Shown: piece by piece, positions 4,614 through 34,424 of the stretch
Numbering within the stretch: the first letter of the stretch is position 1
How the letters are laid out: each line of letters begins with the position of its first letter
DNA from: a virus
Lineage: Duplodnaviria > Caudoviricetes
IMG/VR virus record: IMGVR_UViG_3300037313_000552
Span: 1-41,338 of that record
Strand: one strand, 5' to 3'
Length of the DNA: 41,338 nt
The notes under the pieces: model-generated
Database searches by the model: none
The model's input: the letters and a program-made list of their open reading frames with translations, nothing else
What the model was told of the DNA's origin: nothing
Program-made: the position numbers and the translations under genes

Positions 4614-4774
4614 AGCGCTACGTCCTCACCGATGCTGACCGCGAGAAAGGCATCCACGTCCGCCGCGAGGGCTACGAGGCGCGGCAGATGCGCCGCCGCG
4701 GCGAATTGGCGCTGCTCAACAGGCTTATGGCCGAATTGGCAATGCCCGAAATGTATCCGGAGGAGCGCCCGTGA
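4610..4774 (+). CDS. Hypothetical protein (54 aa, MKRYVLTDADREKG...)
   Basis: GGAGG RBS; ATGA and GTGA coupling. Confidence 0.6.
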   Translation: MKRYVLTDADREKGIHVRREGYEARQMRRRGELALLNRLMAELAMPEMYPEERP

Positions 4775-6586: not shown

Positions 6587-6607
6587 TCTAACGAGAGGGT
6601 GGGGAAC

Positions 6608-7264
6608 ATGGGACGCAAGAAAACGCCAGGCTCTCGCTCAGCGGGCGGGCGCAAGAAGAAACCAAGCACGACAGCCCTGCGTGCCAAATGGGACTATGGC
6701 AATGAGCGATGCGTGGCCCGCCTTGAGCGGTTCCGGCATAGAGAAATCCTAGACGGCAAAGCGGCGTGGATCGATATATTCGACGGCGTTGGACAGCTCC
6801 ACGCGATCGGAATGCTCGAAGGCCACGGTCTCGACGGCAAGCTGCTGAGAGAAGCCGGCCGCGACTACATCGGGCTCTATAACTATCAGTTCATCGACCT
6901 TCTGCCCAAGGGTTCTGATCTGGAACGCGCTTACGGCGGACGCGGAGGAAGCGGGAAGAGCGATCTAATCCCACCTGCAACCAGGCGGGAGATCCGCTTC
7001 GCTCAGCTCGACGCGCTGCTGCCCACTGGATCTGATGAGCGCCGCTGGACGCATAAGCTCCTGCTCGACCACTTTGGTCTGGATACCGTGCACCCGGTAA
7101 TTGATCGGCTGGTGAACTACCGCTTCGCGCAATGGAAGTTGCCGGTCGTCGGCTTCGTCGCCGTCGCAGACGATTTCCAGATTTTGGGATGCTTCCTGCG
7201 CGGTCTGTTCGCGTTGGCAGACGGTTCTCTGCCTGGTCGCGAGCGATTTCGGATCGCAGCCTAG
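6608..7264 (+). CDS. Putative late-gene regulator (Q position)
   Basis: Last early gene before a promoter-bearing intergenic region and the packaging genes; function from position only. Confidence 0.6.
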   Translation: MGRKKTPGSRSAGGRKKKPSTTALRAKWDYGNERCVARLERFRHREILDGKAAWIDIFDGVGQLHAIGMLEGHGLDGKLLREAGRDYIGLYNYQFIDLLPKGSDLERAYGGRGGSGKSDLIPPATRREIRFAQLDALLPTGSDERRWTHKLLLDHFGLDTVHPVIDRLVNYRFAQWKLPVVGFVAVADDFQILGCFLRGLFALADGSLPGRERFRIAA

Positions 7265-7289
7265 GGAACGAAAACATATTTTGCGCGTT
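7265..7289 (+). promoter_or_regulatory. sigma-EcfG (sigmaT/RpoE2)-type promoter motif
   Basis: GGAAC-gaaaacatattttgcg-CGTT, exact GGAAC-N16-CGTT, intergenic. Confidence 0.5.
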
Positions 7290-7302: not shown

Positions 7303-7331
7303 TAGACAGCGGCAACAGACTGTGATATGCC
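7303..7331 (+). promoter_or_regulatory. Candidate late promoter (pR'-like)
   Basis: TAGACA-N17-TATGCC with TG extended -10; -35 flanked by inverted repeat GTTGCCGC/GCGGCAAC. Confidence 0.45.
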
Positions 7332-7340
7332 GCGCTCTCT

Positions 7341-7374
7341 AGACTAGGCGAATTGCGCCTACAAAGTCTTTCTT
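7341..7374 (+). terminator. Promoter-proximal hairpin plus T-rich tail (tR'-like)
   Basis: AGACT-AGGCG-aattg-CGCCT-acaa-AGTCT-TTCTT. Confidence 0.4.
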
Positions 7375-7489: not shown

Positions 7490-7792
7490 ATGTCCCGCGC
7501 TCGATCTCGTGCAATCGTCGAAAGGGCAGAAGTCGTGCCTGAAATCGCGTCCGAGATAGCCGAGGCCCTCAACCGGCTGGCGGACGAATGCGCGGGCATT
7601 GCTGGAGCCCTGAGCTACCTGGCCGCAGGAAAGCACTCGGGAACGGCGGGTGAGCAAAGGCAGCTCGGAGCGGTGATCTACCACACCTCGGTCCAGCGGT
7701 TCGGCGGGGTGAAGTACGACGGCGACCCGATTGACAAGCAGACGATCGACGAGCTCGACAAGACATTCCGGAAGCTGCTGAGAAAGCCGTGA
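7490..7792 (+). CDS. Hypothetical protein, first late gene
   Basis: AAGGGA RBS; 100-aa ORF with phage-like codon usage. Confidence 0.7.
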   Translation: MSRARSRAIVERAEVVPEIASEIAEALNRLADECAGIAGALSYLAAGKHSGTAGEQRQLGAVIYHTSVQRFGGVKYDGDPIDKQTIDELDKTFRKLLRKP

Positions 7793-27910: not shown

Positions 27911-28420
27911 ATGATCTTCATTAATCCCTACGCCGTTGTTCCTGGCGGCGTTCCGGCTGGCACATTCCTTGTAGGAAACAATGCTACACAGACGACGCAC
28001 TCGGCTGTGTCCGGGGACGTTCAGCAGGGCGTCATCGCCCAAGCTTCGGTGAGCGGAACGGCGAACAACATCGTTATCGTGACCGATGCCACGAGTTCCA
28101 GCGTAAACTTCCGGCTTGTGGCCTATAATGCGTCAAGCTCAACGGTGATCGGCGGATCGCTGCTGGGGAAATGCGCCGATAAAACAAGCCTTGCTTCCGG
28201 CGTGAACTCGTTCGCCCTGATTACGCCTTTCTCTGTGGTGAGCGGCCAATGGTACGGGCTGATGATCCATTGCGGAACGGGAACGTTCAATGGCATGTCA
28301 TCCAACGGCACGCTTACCGATCGTTGGTTCTCAGACACCTTCTCTGACGGACCCGTAGATCCCGCCCCAAATAGCGGGCTCAACTCGTCGAACGGTCGCA
28401 TGATCTATCTGACGACCTAG
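27911..28420 (+). CDS. Putative receptor-binding/fibre tip protein
   Basis: MIFINPY N-terminus typical of genes following this adaptor; beta-rich. Confidence 0.72.
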   Translation: MIFINPYAVVPGGVPAGTFLVGNNATQTTHSAVSGDVQQGVIAQASVSGTANNIVIVTDATSSSVNFRLVAYNASSSTVIGGSLLGKCADKTSLASGVNSFALITPFSVVSGQWYGLMIHCGTGTFNGMSSNGTLTDRWFSDTFSDGPVDPAPNSGLNSSNGRMIYLTT

Positions 28421-29470
28421 TCGTGTTTGGACCGCTAGCGCACAAAGAAGAACCGGAGGAACGAACCACGTTCCAAATACTCTGACCCAAGCGGGGCTGA
28501 GGAAGGCAAGGACGATAATCGCAGTTTCCCACGGGCTAAGCCTGCGCTCGCAAAGCATCAACAGGAATCCGGCACAGACGACAGTCATGTCATAGTGATA
28601 GCCATAGGGCGAGATTAGCATCGTTGCTGTCGCTGCGGTCCAGACATTGAAGTCGCGGGCAAGAAACCATGTGGCGCCGCAAGCGAACAGCAGCCAACCG
28701 TAGACGCCGTAGCCCACGCCGGGTGCCGTCGCGACCAGCACCCATGTAATCCAGCGACGGTCCCAAATTGCATGGGCCTGAGCCGAACCGGCGGACGAAA
28801 AGAATTCGTTCCAGCCTCCGAAGATGATGGCGGAAGAGATAATGATGACCGCGCCGATCGCCAAACCAATTACAGCCTTCTTCCAATCTGAGAACACGCT
28901 AACGCCAGCAAGGAAGCCCATGTGCGGCTTTATCAAGAGCAGGGCAGAGAGCGGCGCATAGCGGAAGCCGAAGAACCAGAGCGCGCCCACCAGAAAGCCA
29001 GTCTGCCCGAAGATCACGTTCACCACAGCGGCGGGGGTAAGAACAGCGAGCAGCCTTAGACCTCGCGGCAGGAACGGGCGGCTCGCGAAATAGAAGAGCG
29101 CCATCGTTGCTGCATTCCAGACGAAAAAGCCCACATCGTGGGGCAATAGCGAAAATGGGACTGCCGCAAACAGCATGGGCGGCGGGTATGGCCAGTTGAA
29201 CGGATAATCGCCGAACGTGCTCTTTCCGAAAGCGACGAACGCCTGCGGGTCAGAGGGATTGACGCCAGCAAGGAAGGCGCGACCAGCAAGCCAAATGTCG
29301 GTGAAGTCGCGGAACCCAACCGACGTTGGCCGGCCGCTGTAATAGATCGGAATGACCGCCCCGAGCGCGCAAAGCAGGACTACAAAAGCAGCGCTGCCGC
29401 GACGATCAGAACCGAGATAGCGTAGGCCCAGCTCACCAGGCTCAGAAAGTTGCGCTTCGCCCATTGCCAT
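28331..29470 (-). CDS. GT87 (DUF2029) integral membrane glycosyltransferase, moron
   Basis: DF...W.AG, F.WPYPP, L.PFSLLP, N...GQ.G, IKPH.G, SPY...YD; many TM helices; opposite strand to late operon. Confidence 0.88.
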   Translation of the reverse strand: MAMGEAQLSEPGELGLRYLGSDRRGSAAFVVLLCALGAVIPIYYSGRPTSVGFRDFTDIWLAGRAFLAGVNPSDPQAFVAFGKSTFGDYPFNWPYPPPMLFAAVPFSLLPHDVGFFVWNAATMALFYFASRPFLPRGLRLLAVLTPAAVVNVIFGQTGFLVGALWFFGFRYAPLSALLLIKPHMGFLAGVSVFSDWKKAVIGLAIGAVIIISSAIIFGGWNEFFSSAGSAQAHAIWDRRWITWVLVATAPGVGYGVYGWLLFACGATWFLARDFNVWTAATATMLISPYGYHYDMTVVCAGFLLMLCERRLSPWETAIIVLAFLSPAWVRVFGTWFVPPVLLCALAVQTRLGRQIDHATVRRVEPAIWGGIYGSVREGV

Positions 29471-29571
29471 ACCCGCTCCATCAAGGACCGTCCTTTCCGA
29501 GCAGGCGCATCAATAACGCAAATTAAACACACCGCCAACTGGGGGGAATTTGTCATGCGTGCGAGAATTTC

Positions 29572-29733
29572 GTGATACTGCCGGAATCCCCCAAGGCTCT
29601 GGCCTTTGACGGAACGCTCGCCGCCTGGGCGATGTGGGTTATAACGGTTGGCGCTCCAGCGATCGTGACGCTCTGTACGATCGTCCTGCTCGTCTTGAGG
29701 ATCGTGATTGCGGTTCGGGAGCTTCGGAAGTGA
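29572..29733 (+). CDS. Small holin-like membrane protein (53 aa)
   Basis: VILPESPKALAFDGTLAAWAMWVITVGAPAIVTLCTIVLLVLRIVIAVRELRK: hydrophobic with basic tail; GTGA-coupled to next gene; alternative ATG at 29632. Confidence 0.55.
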   Translation: MILPESPKALAFDGTLAAWAMWVITVGAPAIVTLCTIVLLVLRIVIAVRELRK

Positions 29734-29849
29734 AGCCTGTCTGCCCGCGAACAAAGACGGCTTTGAAAGAGCTGATGCGATCATGGGATGAGGCGCTTTC
29801 GGAGCCCGTTCCCGCAGACATGAAAGAGCTGCTCGCCAAATTGAAATGA
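29730..29849 (+). CDS. NepR-like anti-sigma mini-protein (39 aa)
   Basis: L.ELMRSWDEALSEPVPADMKELLAKL fits NepR core L-x3-(F/Y/W)-D-E-x3-EPVP-x2-(F/M)-x2-LL-x2-L; GTG start coupled to previous stop, GGGAG upstream. Confidence 0.7.
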   Translation: MKPVCPRTKTALKELMRSWDEALSEPVPADMKELLAKLK

Positions 29850-30025
29850 TGGCGGCGTTCGCGCATCGGCGCAGAGCGGGGGAAACCTGAAGCGCCTAGC
29901 CTACTGACCGCCATCGATACCGAGCTGCTGACGCCGCAGTTGCCATAAGCGCCGGCTTACACAGCCGCATCTCATAACTACGGCCAAGGGTGCACAGGAG
30001 CGCCCTCCCAAACACCTAGTCGCTC

Positions 30026-30050
30026 AACGCTCCGAAAAGGATGCGGTTCC
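30026..30050 (-). promoter_or_regulatory. Antisense sigma-EcfG-type promoter motif over endolysin RBS
   Basis: Plus strand AACG-ctccgaaaaggatgcg-GTTCC = GGAAC-N16-CGTT on minus strand, ending 1 nt before lysozyme ATG. Confidence 0.5.
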
Positions 30051-30479
30051 ATGAGAATTTCAGACAAGGGCCTCGCGCTCATCAAACGAGCGGAAGGACT
30101 GAAACTCGATGCCTATCAGGACGGCGGCGGGGTGTGGACGGTCGGCTACGGCTCAACCCTCGACGTCCACAGGGGCATGGTGATTACGCCCGGAGAAGCT
30201 GAGCGGCGGCTGCTGGAGGATTTGGGCCGCCACGACATTACGCCATACCTGGACGGCTGCGCGACCACGCAAAGCCAGTTCGACGCGATGACCAGCCTCG
30301 CGTTCAATATCGGGCTTGATCGCTTCAACGGCTCAACCGTCCTCAAGCGTCACCGGCTCGGCAATTACTCCGCAGCAGCGGCGGCTTTCCTTCTGTGGAA
30401 GTTCGACAACGGACGATTGGTCCTCGGTCTGCTCAACCGCCGCGAGCAAGAGCGCCTCCTTTACCTCGGAGAATTATGA
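30051..30479 (+). CDS. Endolysin, phage lysozyme (GH24)
   Basis: IKRAEGL.LDAYQDGGGVWTVGYG (E-x8-D-x5-T), QFDAMTSLAFNIG, GLLNRREQE. Confidence 0.95.
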   Translation: MRISDKGLALIKRAEGLKLDAYQDGGGVWTVGYGSTLDVHRGMVITPGEAERRLLEDLGRHDITPYLDGCATTQSQFDAMTSLAFNIGLDRFNGSTVLKRHRLGNYSAAAAAFLLWKFDNGRLVLGLLNRREQERLLYLGEL

Positions 30480-31930
30480 GCATGGCTCGCTATATTATCG
30501 CCGCAGCATTGCTCACCGGCTCCGCGTTCGTCGCTGCGGCCGGCAAGCCCTTGAGCATCAGCCTGACTCCCTCGGCTCAGACCGTCACCGAAGGGCAGAG
30601 CGCCTCCCTGTGCCTCAACAAGAGCGGCGGCAACGGGAGGCAGACTGCGGCCAAGGTGACGACCTCTGATGGCTGGTCCGGATCGGTCGTGCCCGGAAGC
30701 TGCTTCACCATTCCCACAAAGGATGACGCGCTGGTTAACGGTGCGCGCGATATCATTGTCACGGCTACGGCGAGCACGGGCGTAACCGCAATCGCCGTTA
30801 TCCACGAACTGGACAATGACGTCGCTCCGCCACCCCCGACGAACGGCCCGTCCGGCGAAGCGACAATTGCAGACAATTTCAACACCGCTTCCGGGATCGA
30901 GCAGACATGGTATGGCCCCAGCGGACGCGGCGGCATCGCTCCAGCATCAGCCGATCCTGTCGGCGCATTCCGCCTCTTTTGCGGCGCTGGACAACTGTTG
31001 AAAGACGATCCGCTAGTTTACCCCGGACAGCCCGGAGCCAGCCACCTTCACCAGTTCTTCGGCAACCTCGGGGCGAACGCGAGCTCCAATTACAATTCTC
31101 TGCGCACGAGCGGCGATTCGACATGCGACATCGGCTCAGTCCCGAACAATCGCTCAGCCTATTGGATGCCAGCGATGATGGATGGGGCGGGCGGCGTCGT
31201 GAAGCCGAACTGGCTCAAGGTCTATTACAAGCGCAATCCGAAGAGCGATCCGATGTGCAAGTCACCGGATCAGGGCGGCATCGGCATCTGCACCGACCTT
31301 CCCAACGGCATCCGCTACGTCTTCGGCTACAACATGAAGACGATGAGCGGAGGCCCCAACGACCTCAACAGTCAGGATAGCGGCGCGATCACGTTTCAAT
31401 GCTGGTCGAACAACGAAGGCGCTCCCGCTGTCGCTGGATATTTCCACAATCTCCGCGATATCGTGGCGGCCGGCTGTCCCGCGGGTGCTCTGCTGATGAT
31501 CGTTGCCGCAGCGCCCATTTGTTGGGACGGCGTGAACCTCGACAGCGCCGACCACCGATCGCACATGGCGATGGCGAATGGACCGATGTATCCGGGCCAG
31601 TTCTTCCGGGCGTGCCCGTCAACGCATCCGTACCTGATCGATAGCCTTGAGGTTCAGGCCGCTTTCCGCACGGACGCCAATTTCGTCGCTGGTAAGTGGC
31701 ATTTGTCGAGCGACGAGATGGTGCCTGGCACTGTTCCGGGCTCGACCTGGCATATGGACTATTGGGAAGCCTGGAGTCCGACCGTCAAGAAGACGTGGCA
31801 CGATAACTGCATCAACCTGAAGCTCTCGGGTTCTGGCGGCGACATGTGCAACGGAACGCAGATCATCGGTGCGAACGGACCACCTTGGCCTCAGGACTTC
31901 CCCGATCATGTCGTGGTGCCGGTCCAATGA
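30476..31930 (+). CDS. Secreted DUF1996-domain protein with Calx-beta-like N-terminal module
   Basis: Signal peptide; VTEG...DD.LV.G...DND Calx-beta-like; DPLVYPG...SHLHQFFGN, STC...N.SAYW.P, P.CWDGVNLDSADHRSH, CPSTHP, H.DY. Confidence 0.88.
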   Translation: MSMARYIIAAALLTGSAFVAAAGKPLSISLTPSAQTVTEGQSASLCLNKSGGNGRQTAAKVTTSDGWSGSVVPGSCFTIPTKDDALVNGARDIIVTATASTGVTAIAVIHELDNDVAPPPPTNGPSGEATIADNFNTASGIEQTWYGPSGRGGIAPASADPVGAFRLFCGAGQLLKDDPLVYPGQPGASHLHQFFGNLGANASSNYNSLRTSGDSTCDIGSVPNNRSAYWMPAMMDGAGGVVKPNWLKVYYKRNPKSDPMCKSPDQGGIGICTDLPNGIRYVFGYNMKTMSGGPNDLNSQDSGAITFQCWSNNEGAPAVAGYFHNLRDIVAAGCPAGALLMIVAAAPICWDGVNLDSADHRSHMAMANGPMYPGQFFRACPSTHPYLIDSLEVQAAFRTDANFVAGKWHLSSDEMVPGTVPGSTWHMDYWEAWSPTVKKTWHDNCINLKLSGSGGDMCNGTQIIGANGPPWPQDFPDHVVVPVQ

Positions 31931-32109
31931 GCGTCAAAACCGCCGCATCCTATCTCGAACGCCGCCTTCTGGAGCGCTCGTTCTGGCTTCAGTGCGGTGC
32001 TGCGATCATTCCCGCCATCGCTTTGCCCGCTCCGTGGCGGTTCATCTCTATCGGTGTCGCGGTCATCGCCGCGCTTGTGCCTGACGGAGTGCTCGGGCAG
32101 ACCAAGTAA
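31927..32109 (+). CDS. Holin-like membrane protein (60 aa)
   Basis: YLERRLLERSFW followed by two hydrophobic segments; ATGA coupling. Confidence 0.65.
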   Translation: MSVKTAASYLERRLLERSFWLQCGAAIIPAIALPAPWRFISIGVAVIAALVPDGVLGQTK

Positions 32110-32124
32110 CGGGGGAATTTCCAG

Positions 32125-32694
32125 ATGCTCAAAGCGCTTCTCGGCGCATCGCTGATGCTCGCCCCGGCCCCAGCCGTTCCGCAGACCAATCCGACTGGCC
32201 CGGCGCCCAAGGTCATCTGCCGTCAGGAGCATGGCTACAGCGCGGGAACCGCCTTCAGGATCGGCCCCCATCTTCTTGTGTCGGTAAACCACGTCACCAG
32301 CGCGGGGAATTGCGAAATCGACGGCGAGCCAATCCACATCCTTTACGCATCTCGCAAAGCCGACTTCTCCATTCTCTCCGATGATCGTTTAGGCAAGTGG
32401 CTCAAGGTCGATTGCGGCGGCTTCGTCAAGGGGCGCATGTACGTTGCTGTCGGCCATGCGAGGGCCATGGATGATCTAACCTTTGTGCCGATGGTCGCAA
32501 CGGGAATGACCTCGGGAAGCCTCTCAATTCTTGCCGGCGTGTTCACCGCGCAGCCAGGCCAATCGGGCGGACCTATTCTCGACGGCGAGACCGGCAAAGT
32601 CGTGGGAACGGTCAACACCGCGCAGTGGGATCGCGGCCTTACGGGAAGCATTGAGCTTCGTGGCACGAGCATTTGTGGCGGGGGTGCAGCATGA
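32125..32694 (+). CDS. Secreted trypsin-like serine protease
   Basis: Signal peptide; GTAF...VNHV (His), ADFSIL (Asp), PGQSGGPI (Ser). Confidence 0.88.
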   Translation: MLKALLGASLMLAPAPAVPQTNPTGPAPKVICRQEHGYSAGTAFRIGPHLLVSVNHVTSAGNCEIDGEPIHILYASRKADFSILSDDRLGKWLKVDCGGFVKGRMYVAVGHARAMDDLTFVPMVATGMTSGSLSILAGVFTAQPGQSGGPILDGETGKVVGTVNTAQWDRGLTGSIELRGTSICGGGAA

Positions 32695-33383: not shown

Positions 33384-34424
33384 GTGGGCCAAAGACCGCT
33401 CTCAGACAAAGAGTGCCGCGAGGCGCTTGAACAGCTAGAACGTCACGGCAACAAGCAAGCCGCAGCGGACGCGCTAGGCATATCGCGATCCACCTTTCAG
33501 TCGCGAATCCGCACGGCACTCAACCGCATGGAGGCGGACAGGCCGGATATTCCAACCGCCGAACCTCTCCCGCCCGCTGATCTGCCTACCGAGCAAATCA
33601 TCGGCCTCATGCGGGACCGCTTCAACCTCCGCGCTGCCAATGCGGCGGCGAGGAGATGGCGCGAGTTCAAGGTGCCGACAGACGGCCCCTATGCCCTGAT
33701 GCTGTTCGGCGATCCCCACATTGACGATGACGGCTGCAACTGGGGGCTGCTCGAATCCCACTGCCAGCTCGCCCGCGAGACCGAGCATCTATATGCGATC
33801 AGCGTCGGCGACCAGACGAACAATTGGGTAGGCCGCCTGACACGGCTATACGCCAATCAGGAAACCTCGGTTCACACGGCGCGCTCGCTCATCAAATGGC
33901 TGCTCGTTGAAAGCGGCGTTCCCTGGTTCCTGTGGATCCACGGCAACCATGACGCATGGAACGAAGGCATCCCTATTATCGAGGGAATGAACGCTCACCA
34001 AATTGCGATGGAGGACTGGCAAGCGAAGTTCGTCCTCAAATCCCCGAACGGCTACGGCTTCCGCACTTGGGTGGCGCACAATTTCCCCGGAACGTCACAG
34101 TGGAACAAGCTCCACGGCGCGCAGAAAGCCGCGCAGATGAAGGACTGGGCGCACCTCTATGTCGCCGGCCACCACCATAACTGGGCGCTGCATCAGGAAG
34201 AGCACGACCACCGCAATTTCGTCTATTGGCTGGCGAGGGTTCGCGGTTATAAATTCAACGACGACTACGCCAACGTGCTGGGCTTCGGCGAACAGGAATA
34301 TGGCTCGTCGATCGTCTGTGTCGTTGATCCTCACGCTGACAAGCTCAACGCGCTGACATGCTTTGCCGATCCGGCGGAGGGCGCGGACTTCCTACGGTTC
34401 AAGCGCCGCAAGGCCGCAGCGTGA
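33384..34424 (+). CDS. HTH-fused calcineurin-like metallophosphoesterase
   Basis: GNKQAAADALGISRSTF HTH; GDPH, GD, GNHD, H, GHHH metal motifs. Confidence 0.88.
   Translation: MGQRPLSDKECREALEQLERHGNKQAAADALGISRSTFQSRIRTALNRMEADRPDIPTAEPLPPADLPTEQIIGLMRDRFNLRAANAAARRWREFKVPTDGPYALMLFGDPHIDDDGCNWGLLESHCQLARETEHLYAISVGDQTNNWVGRLTRLYANQETSVHTARSLIKWLLVESGVPWFLWIHGNHDAWNEGIPIIEGMNAHQIAMEDWQAKFVLKSPNGYGFRTWVAHNFPGTSQWNKLHGAQKAAQMKDWAHLYVAGHHHNWALHQEEHDHRNFVYWLARVRGYKFNDDYANVLGFGEQEYGSSIVCVVDPHADKLNALTCFADPAEGADFLRFKRRKAAA

Follow-up and report, generated by a model that had tools for sequence, protein, structure and literature searches.

Can a temperate phage read the general stress response of its host and use it to time lysis? 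The question is raised by the lysis region of the virus record studied here, in which a short ORF resembling NepR, the host's own anti-sigma factor for EcfG, is followed by an EcfG-type promoter motif on the opposite strand. The whole record, 41.3 kb long, was analyzed and is called the window throughout. Its integrase, terminase and DUF2460/BR0599/NlpC tail module mark it, by gene content, as a temperate tailed phage. A sphingomonad is the likely host, since Novosphingobium (83%) was the sole organism-named match among the best 120 terminase relatives listed, a profile of the phage peptides matched host NepR in 270 of the 401 genomes of the family of G155, and the phage peptides, like Sphingomonas-type host NepRs, stop directly after helix 2. 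From the NepR and EcfG sequences of G155, we infer that this family is Sphingomonadaceae. Sphingomonads possess EcfG, NepR and PhyR.

The original prediction described a 39-aa ORF joined by a GTGA overlap to the stop of a holin-like 53-aa ORF and, 176 nt after the stop of the peptide gene, a minus-strand GGAAC-N16-CGTT motif (here P2) lying over the ribosome-binding region of the endolysin, and both were found where they had been placed (Table 1); the opposite strand of the P2 spacer is that ribosome-binding region. The peptide gene was present in 10 phage contigs (the window, L001 to L005, L079, L096, L158 and L351), which come from few datasets judging by their identifiers and include five close kin; one of the scans that led to them covered 331 loci. 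The L079 contig stops short of the endolysin, and the remaining nine are the loci scored for P2. No Pfam or PHROG match was obtained for the holin-like ORF; the relatives carry holins of three unrelated types, and a start/stop overlap with the peptide gene occurs in all three. The endolysin of the relatives is either a lysozyme at 45 to 87% identity or, in L351, a GH19 enzyme before which the motif is kept, and the genes upstream of the module also vary. Thus, the peptide, P2 and the RNA fold described below are conserved together across changes of holin, endolysin, spacer and upstream genes, and we are confident in the reality of the module and in its link to EcfG.

Table 1. Features of the lysis region and of the head of the late operon, in window coordinates.
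Feature	Position	Strand	Remarks
Candidate late-gene regulator	6599..7264	+	Upstream of P1; weak DUF6456-like lead
P1, second EcfG-type motif	7265..7289	+	Sense; head of late operon
Sigma70-like late promoter candidate	7303-7331	+	13 nt after P1; from the sequence and three relatives; putative function
Hairpin	7345-7361	+	After the sigma70-like promoter; same arrangement in three relatives; putative function
GT87 moron	28331..29538	-	Module neighbor; own sigma70-like site at 29538-29510
Holin-like gene	29572..29733	+	53 aa, hydrophobic; putative function from hydrophobicity, size and position
NepR-like peptide gene	29730..29849	+	GTG start; 39 aa; core helices; 9 residues before helix 1
Predicted EcfG-dependent antisense RNA	29843..30020	-	About 180 nt (about 90-185 nt in relatives); both ends predicted
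Conserved 3' domain of the predicted antisense RNA	29843..29919	-	Outer helix pairs 29915-29908 with 29855-29848
Second stem-loop	29964..29984	-	13-nt loop common to 6/9 loci, including the distant L096
P2, EcfG-type motif GGAAC-N16-CGTT	30026..30050	-	Abuts the endolysin start; 0 nt from the ATG
Endolysin, phage lysozyme (PF00959)	30051..30479	+	

NepR (PF18557) was the only Pfam match of the window peptide, at 22 bits (E 1.3e-4). The comparison with this family, proposed together with the original prediction, therefore succeeded in part: the window copy falls below the gathering cut-off of 25.7 bits, which was passed by 7 of the 14 relatives tested (4/9 and 3/5; best, 38.8 bits), and the L003 peptide had no Pfam match. 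Against the PDB, the family profile A2 ranked 3t0y_B first (E 6e-4) and 2lfw_B second (E 2.3e-3) of 10 matches, these two being the solved structures of Caulobacter and Sphingomonas NepR; the window peptide alone as the query found no NepR there. Membership of the NepR family is supported by the matches of the relatives to PF18557 and by the first ranks of the NepR structures. Protein searches gave 5, then 29 proteins, most of them 32 to 50 aa long with a C-terminal end like that of the window copy, and the 39-aa ORF is, by its sequence, part of a family of short phage NepR-like peptides. In S. melonis NepR, according to the accessible text of its description, L32 and Y36 matter, and R33A is without effect in vivo (PMC6599016). 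The window peptide has L15, W19 and M31 at the positions of S. melonis L32, Y36 and M48 and a methionine at that of R33; in three of the eight peptides listed (the L003/L004/L158 type), Y and L stand at the L32/Y36 positions.

The phage peptides are also distinguished by what precedes helix 1. Against the nine residues of the window peptide and the 1 to 15 of its phage relatives stand 22 to 48 residues in 27 host NepRs, that is, in those of the 31 host matches with a settable start. Caulobacter NepR needs its disordered N-terminal region (FR1) for anti-sigma function in vivo, and a core-only version bound sigmaT in a two-hybrid assay yet did not inhibit it in vivo (PMC4551977). A region of the FR1 type is mostly absent from the phage peptide, which diverges at the start of helix 1, and the gene sits in the lysis cassette, away from phyR/ecfG and with no EcfG-type sense motif upstream. 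The phage peptide thus appears to be NepR core in character, but two defining features of host NepR, FR1 and the phyR/ecfG locus, are absent. In several sphingomonads, the EcfG sigma factor itself carries an in-frame N-terminal NepR-like segment (L421, 5161-5949; L422, 3855-4634; L405; L414; L425), and such fusions are possibly self-inhibited sigma factors.

Counted in the window, GGAAC-N16/17-CGTT has three matches against 0.73 expected, and at least three occurred in 4 of 100 shuffles; P2 judged from the window alone is weak to marginal. The third EcfG-type motif (26206-26181, minus strand) lies inside a tail gene and is probably there by chance. The weak statistics of the window are no longer a doubt, since the minus-strand motif was conserved 0 to 10 nt from the endolysin start in all nine peptide loci that reach the endolysin. 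Across these loci, the P2 spacer has a mean identity of 0.36, and the -10 box is held at 16 to 17 nt in every case, tracking a shifted -35 in L001 and L005. Furthermore, among the 158 lysozyme loci with more than 400 nt of upstream DNA, the motif fell within -100 to +30 of the endolysin start in six, and a NepR-like ORF was found in exactly those six; none of the 152 loci without the peptide had it, many of the 152 being redundant and from unrelated hosts. The background of the minus-strand motif was 10 matches in 891 kb, and over 10 whole records it occurred once in eight of them, twice in G660 and once, elsewhere, in G661. The same motif is found upstream of nepR and phyR in host stress loci and agrees with the S. 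melonis EcfG motif in the accessible text of its report (PMC6599016). The proposals that P2 is an EcfG-type promoter motif and that peptide and motif are conserved together in related phages are therefore both borne out by the nine loci, the first also by the host genes.

Downstream of P2, a structured minus-strand RNA is predicted, its start being set 5 to 6 nt after the -10 box. A longest-helix search found 7 to 10 Watson-Crick pairs spanning 59 to 70 nt in 9 of the 10 loci, with five different sequences in register, against 0 to 6% of random positions matching. The helix opens at the peptide stop codon in seven loci, inside a read-through ORF in L096 and, in L158, at a remnant lying 146 nt farther on. 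The 3' domain has the internal loop AGUA (29905-29902)/GAA (29860-29858), a C-rich apex (29882-29874) and a short U-rich tail. AGUA/GAA, a sarcin-ricin/bulged-G signature according to the accessible text of PMC5737476, was in fixed register in all nine loci and readable on the minus strand only, with a rough chance of 4e-4 per lineage; the pair following the helix on that strand is U-G in seven of nine, and the apex has a C-rich tract in nine of nine. A covariance model built from nine loci recovered the held-out L351 at 32.5 bits (E 2e-6), where the RNA lies 47 nt after the promoter and 274 nt from the peptide stop, between the promoter and a cargo gene. This placement and the minus-only loop indicate that the RNA goes with the promoter and the minus strand, not with the nepR stop. 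The covariation pair counts are support rather than proof, as they come from a model-fitted alignment of the nine training rows, L351 and one junk row. Whole-spacer folding z-scores of the minus strand ranged from +0.2 to -3.5, with one of eight below -2, and are unremarkable. Rfam gave no match to the RNA in the window or in seven loci.

Two other explanations of the antisense strand were rejected: a small ORF on it is not conserved, its frames breaking between relatives, and the complement that would let the 13-nt loop pair with the endolysin start is not conserved either. In L351 (2776-2546, 77 aa) and L158 (373-182, 64 aa), a small inserted minus-strand cargo ORF separates the RNA from the peptide gene; the two ORFs are mutually unrelated and have no Pfam match, and similar sigma70-like sites precede them, each overlapping the RNA 3' tail. 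In L096 (2717-3004), the NepR-like ORF continues past helix 2 without a stop, crosses the RNA region and overlaps the endolysin start, so that holin, peptide and endolysin are coupled in a single chain.

The reach of this RNA bears on the circuit originally proposed, a mutually antagonistic switch in which the antisense transcript damps both holin and NepR. Since its 3' end is not a classical terminator, the transcript may extend over nepR and holin. However, such damping is doubtful: in 7 of the 10 loci, the end of the conserved RNA coincides with the nepR-like stop, and in L158 and L351 it lies farther away. Holin and NepR are thus likely spared, which makes a one-way gate likelier than mutual antagonism.

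The explanation to which we give an even chance is a stress-dependent lysis gate, in which an EcfG-driven antisense RNA would act against the endolysin leader and would later be lifted by the holin-coupled peptide quenching EcfG. In a stressed cell, EcfG would fire P2, with convergent transcription from the endolysin ribosome-binding region. The P2 RNA, fully complementary over the nepR-endolysin spacer, would lower the endolysin and the downstream Rz-like spanin and spare holin and peptide. The peptide would accumulate with the holin and bind EcfG, PhyR or both; its near-absent N-terminal region may let it escape removal by phospho-PhyR, and occupation of PhyR would be an alternative quenching route, as proposed for S. 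melonis NepR2 in the accessible text of PMC6599016. As EcfG activity fell, the antisense would end and lysis would follow. As an outcome, the latent period would lengthen in slow, stressed hosts, and the lysis genes would stay silent in stressed lysogens. The evidence for this gate is the co-occurrence of peptide and P2 in nine of nine loci with divergent spacers, the six lysozyme loci with the motif that all have the peptide, and the motif kept before the GH19 endolysin. It also includes the agreement of P2 with the host nepR and phyR promoter motif, the match of the peptide to solved NepRs and to their key residues, the minus-strand RNA with its loop and its recovery in L351, P1 in four phages, and the overlap of the peptide start with all three holin types. 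Several points count against it: core-only Caulobacter NepR is not inhibitory in vivo (PMC4551977), and the phage peptides are core-only; a pure cis-antisense needs no conserved loop sequences, yet the loops are conserved; the window peptide scores below the Pfam cut-off, and Y and L occupy the L32 and Y36 positions in the L003/L004/L158 type; and there are the unremarkable z-scores, the nonclassical 3' end, the read-through in L096, the few source datasets with five close kin, and a P1 effect that could be of either sign.

The conserved loops would be better accommodated if the RNA were a trans-acting, GsrN-like stress sRNA, a moron serving the stressed lysogen, with the peptide as a separate late inhibitor of the stress response that also shuts the RNA off and the endolysin as a mere neighbor. 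Both the C-rich apex and the 13-nt loop suggest a trans partner, GsrN is sigmaT-dependent and acts via a C-rich loop in the accessible text of its description (PMC5869019), the RNA travels with the promoter rather than the nepR stop, and the spacer tolerates the cargo ORFs of L158 and L351. In sRNAs of this kind, the C-rich loop would pair in trans with G-rich mRNA leaders. A mere neighbor, however, would hardly be expected to have the promoter 0 to 10 nt from its start in nine of nine loci and across two endolysin families. In addition, no target among 49 window start regions rose above the 1% tail of random 56-mers, where the best (-18.0 kcal/mol) fell, and no host homologue was found in 141 sphingomonad-family genomes, the covariance model giving four weak matches, none with a promoter. 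We consider this explanation unlikely, if a serious competitor to the lysis gate.

The window also carries an EcfG-type motif far from the lysis cassette. At the head of the late operon, the order is gene 6599-7264, P1, the sigma70-like promoter, a small gene and terminase. P1 was found in four phages, 13 to 15 nt before a sigma70-like -35, with L461 keeping it despite an altered spacer, and in the same setting in G660 and G661, both of the other module phages with records reaching the region; the five other module records are fragments without it. The gene upstream of P1 is 27 to 32% identical in G660 and G661, with an additional ORF intervening in G660, and homologues of this candidate regulator lie upstream of P1 in three phages. 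It had no Pfam or PHROG match and was found in 0 of 71 genomes and in no GenBank phage; a structure comparison to DUF6456-like proteins (Atlas, 0.87; TM, 0.45) is a lead only. GafZ-type antiterminators load between the -35 and -10 of their own promoter, according to the accessible text of PMC11150451, and by position and by this analogy the gene may be a late antiterminator, which is a weak lead. In the window (7490-7792) and in L477, L472 and L475, P1 and the sigma70-like promoter are immediately followed by a small gene with a basic start, in two sequence types with no family match; it could be the direct output of P1.

Under the gate, P1 and the sigma70-type late promoter would work in tandem, with EcfG sustaining late transcription as sigma70 activity drops. 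Taken together with P2, this leads to a broader proposal, to which we assign slightly less than an even chance: in a family of sphingomonad phages, EcfG would drive the late program, with one of its promoters beside the late promoter and another opposing the endolysin. Combined with a novel antisense RNA of the bulged-G type and a NepR mimic proof against PhyR, these would form a self-timing circuit, with lysis time set by the stress level of the host.

The tandem arrangement could also work in the opposite sense, and here lies the explanation nearest to that of the original prediction: a bistable dormancy switch, in which binding of EcfG to P1 shuts sigma70 out of the late promoter and antisense from P2 covers nepR and holin, so that stress blocks the whole late program until phage NepR wins. 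In four phages, about 8 nt separate the predicted P1 start from the sigma70-like -35 that follows it, the GafZ-type mode of loading (in the accessible text of PMC11150451) would suit such interference, and the P2 transcript has no classical terminator. Nevertheless, the conserved RNA has its end at the nepR-like stop or beyond it, an additive effect is the simpler reading of tandem promoters, and the identity of the regulator is only a lead, leaving this switch improbable. Doubt about the peptide itself gives rise to another alternative, that it is truncated and noninhibitory, binding EcfG without blocking it or displacing host NepR, so that EcfG activity would rise, P1 would be boosted and the delay at P2 prolonged. 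Core-only NepR does bind sigmaT with no inhibition (PMC4551977), and the phage peptides are core-only and divergent at the start of helix 1; on the other side, extra sphingomonad NepR paralogues act negatively via EcfG or PhyR in the accessible texts of PMC6599016 and PMC9303464, and there would be no path to lysis without a further switch, which renders the alternative very improbable. Finally, motifs read by another ECF sigma factor or a phage protein, or arising as by-products of ribosome-binding sites beside a merely NepR-resembling peptide, would suit the GTTCC next to the start codon and the low Pfam score in the window, but are scarcely credible given a -10 box that holds its distance in nine of nine loci, even behind a shifted -35, and the 7 of 14 relatives above the Pfam cut-off.

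The surroundings of the module were also considered. The GT87 gene had been suggested as an output of the antisense promoter; only 2 of the 10 loci (the window and L001) have a GT87-like gene next to the module, where a sigma70-like site of its own is present in the window and retained in L001, and it was rejected as EcfG cargo. Between the endolysin and the Rz-like spanin, the window has a secreted-looking DUF1996 protein and a trypsin-like protease (30395-32694), a slot into which other secreted enzymes are swapped among relatives. An HTH plus metallophosphoesterase-like gene ends the late region (33384-34424; also in L003), and L351 has a weak tRNA-like match (4689-4764, minus strand; Rfam tRNA-Sec, 30.8 bits, below cut-off). 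Prophage copies of the module were absent from the best 30 lysozyme loci and the best 30 peptide loci of the 401 family genomes, and cultured phages gave no significant peptide match. A 16-mer loop scan returned 27 matches in genome contigs, attributable to chance judging by their taxa and none with a NepR-like ORF, and three of eight viral matches were likewise unrelated; a metagenome scan (15 loci) yielded no new module, and a motif-plus-start scan of 120 loci found the peptide only in already known contigs.

Targeted literature searches, with thin coverage of subscription papers, found no phage NepR or phage EcfG promoter, and no phage NepR is mentioned in the accessible part of a review of the host pathway (PMC8103513). 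If the proposed gate is true, a phage would be reading the host general stress response directly to time lysis, with a captured anti-sigma factor closing the loop, and the adjustment of phage latent period to host state becomes testable with three small parts in Sphingomonas. Additionally, the 35- to 45-aa peptides would be natural core-only NepRs with which the need of host NepR for a disordered N terminus could be probed directly, and they are possible tools for switching off the stress response.

Several known systems share parts of this arrangement. The lambda paQ and OOP transcripts are antisense RNAs in phage development, and the VqmA of phage VP882 is a captured host regulator through which a host cue leads to lysis. 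The module resembles them in its antisense control and in a captured regulator coupling a cue to lysis; unlike them, it would take its input from the host stress sigma factor itself, acting at either end of the late operon, and the loop would be closed by an anti-sigma factor of the phage. T4 AsiA is a small phage protein against a host sigma factor. T7 Gp5.7 inhibits the sigmaS holoenzyme in the accessible text of its report (10.1101/262279). The peptide is likewise a small phage protein that would act against a host sigma factor and, as with Gp5.7, a general-stress one; in contrast to both, as far as the accessible text describes Gp5.7, it is homologous to the host's own anti-sigma factor and is paired with a promoter for the same sigma factor in the lysis cassette. 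The RNA is similar to GsrN and other EcfG-dependent sRNAs, as presented in the accessible text of PMC5869019, in its EcfG-type promoter, structured small RNA and exposed C-rich tract, and differs in being a phage RNA antisense to a late mRNA, with a bulged-G type loop, no Rfam match and no host homologue found. With the alphaproteobacterial NepR-EcfG-PhyR partner switch (PF18557; 2LFW, 3T0Y) and the NepR2 of S. melonis and S. granuli, the peptide shares a two-helix core and an E-P/G-V-P linker, and with host NepR the key hydrophobic residues, the Sphingomonas-type C terminus and the cognate promoter motif. Unlike host NepR, it is phage-borne and holin-coupled, with no EcfG-type promoter in front, no ecfG/phyR nearby and an N-terminal region of 1 to 15 residues. 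That a phage can couple lysis to a host cue through a captured host regulator is thus known already. What appears to be new is the use of EcfG as the input, along with the anti-sigma mimic, the promoter pair and the RNA.
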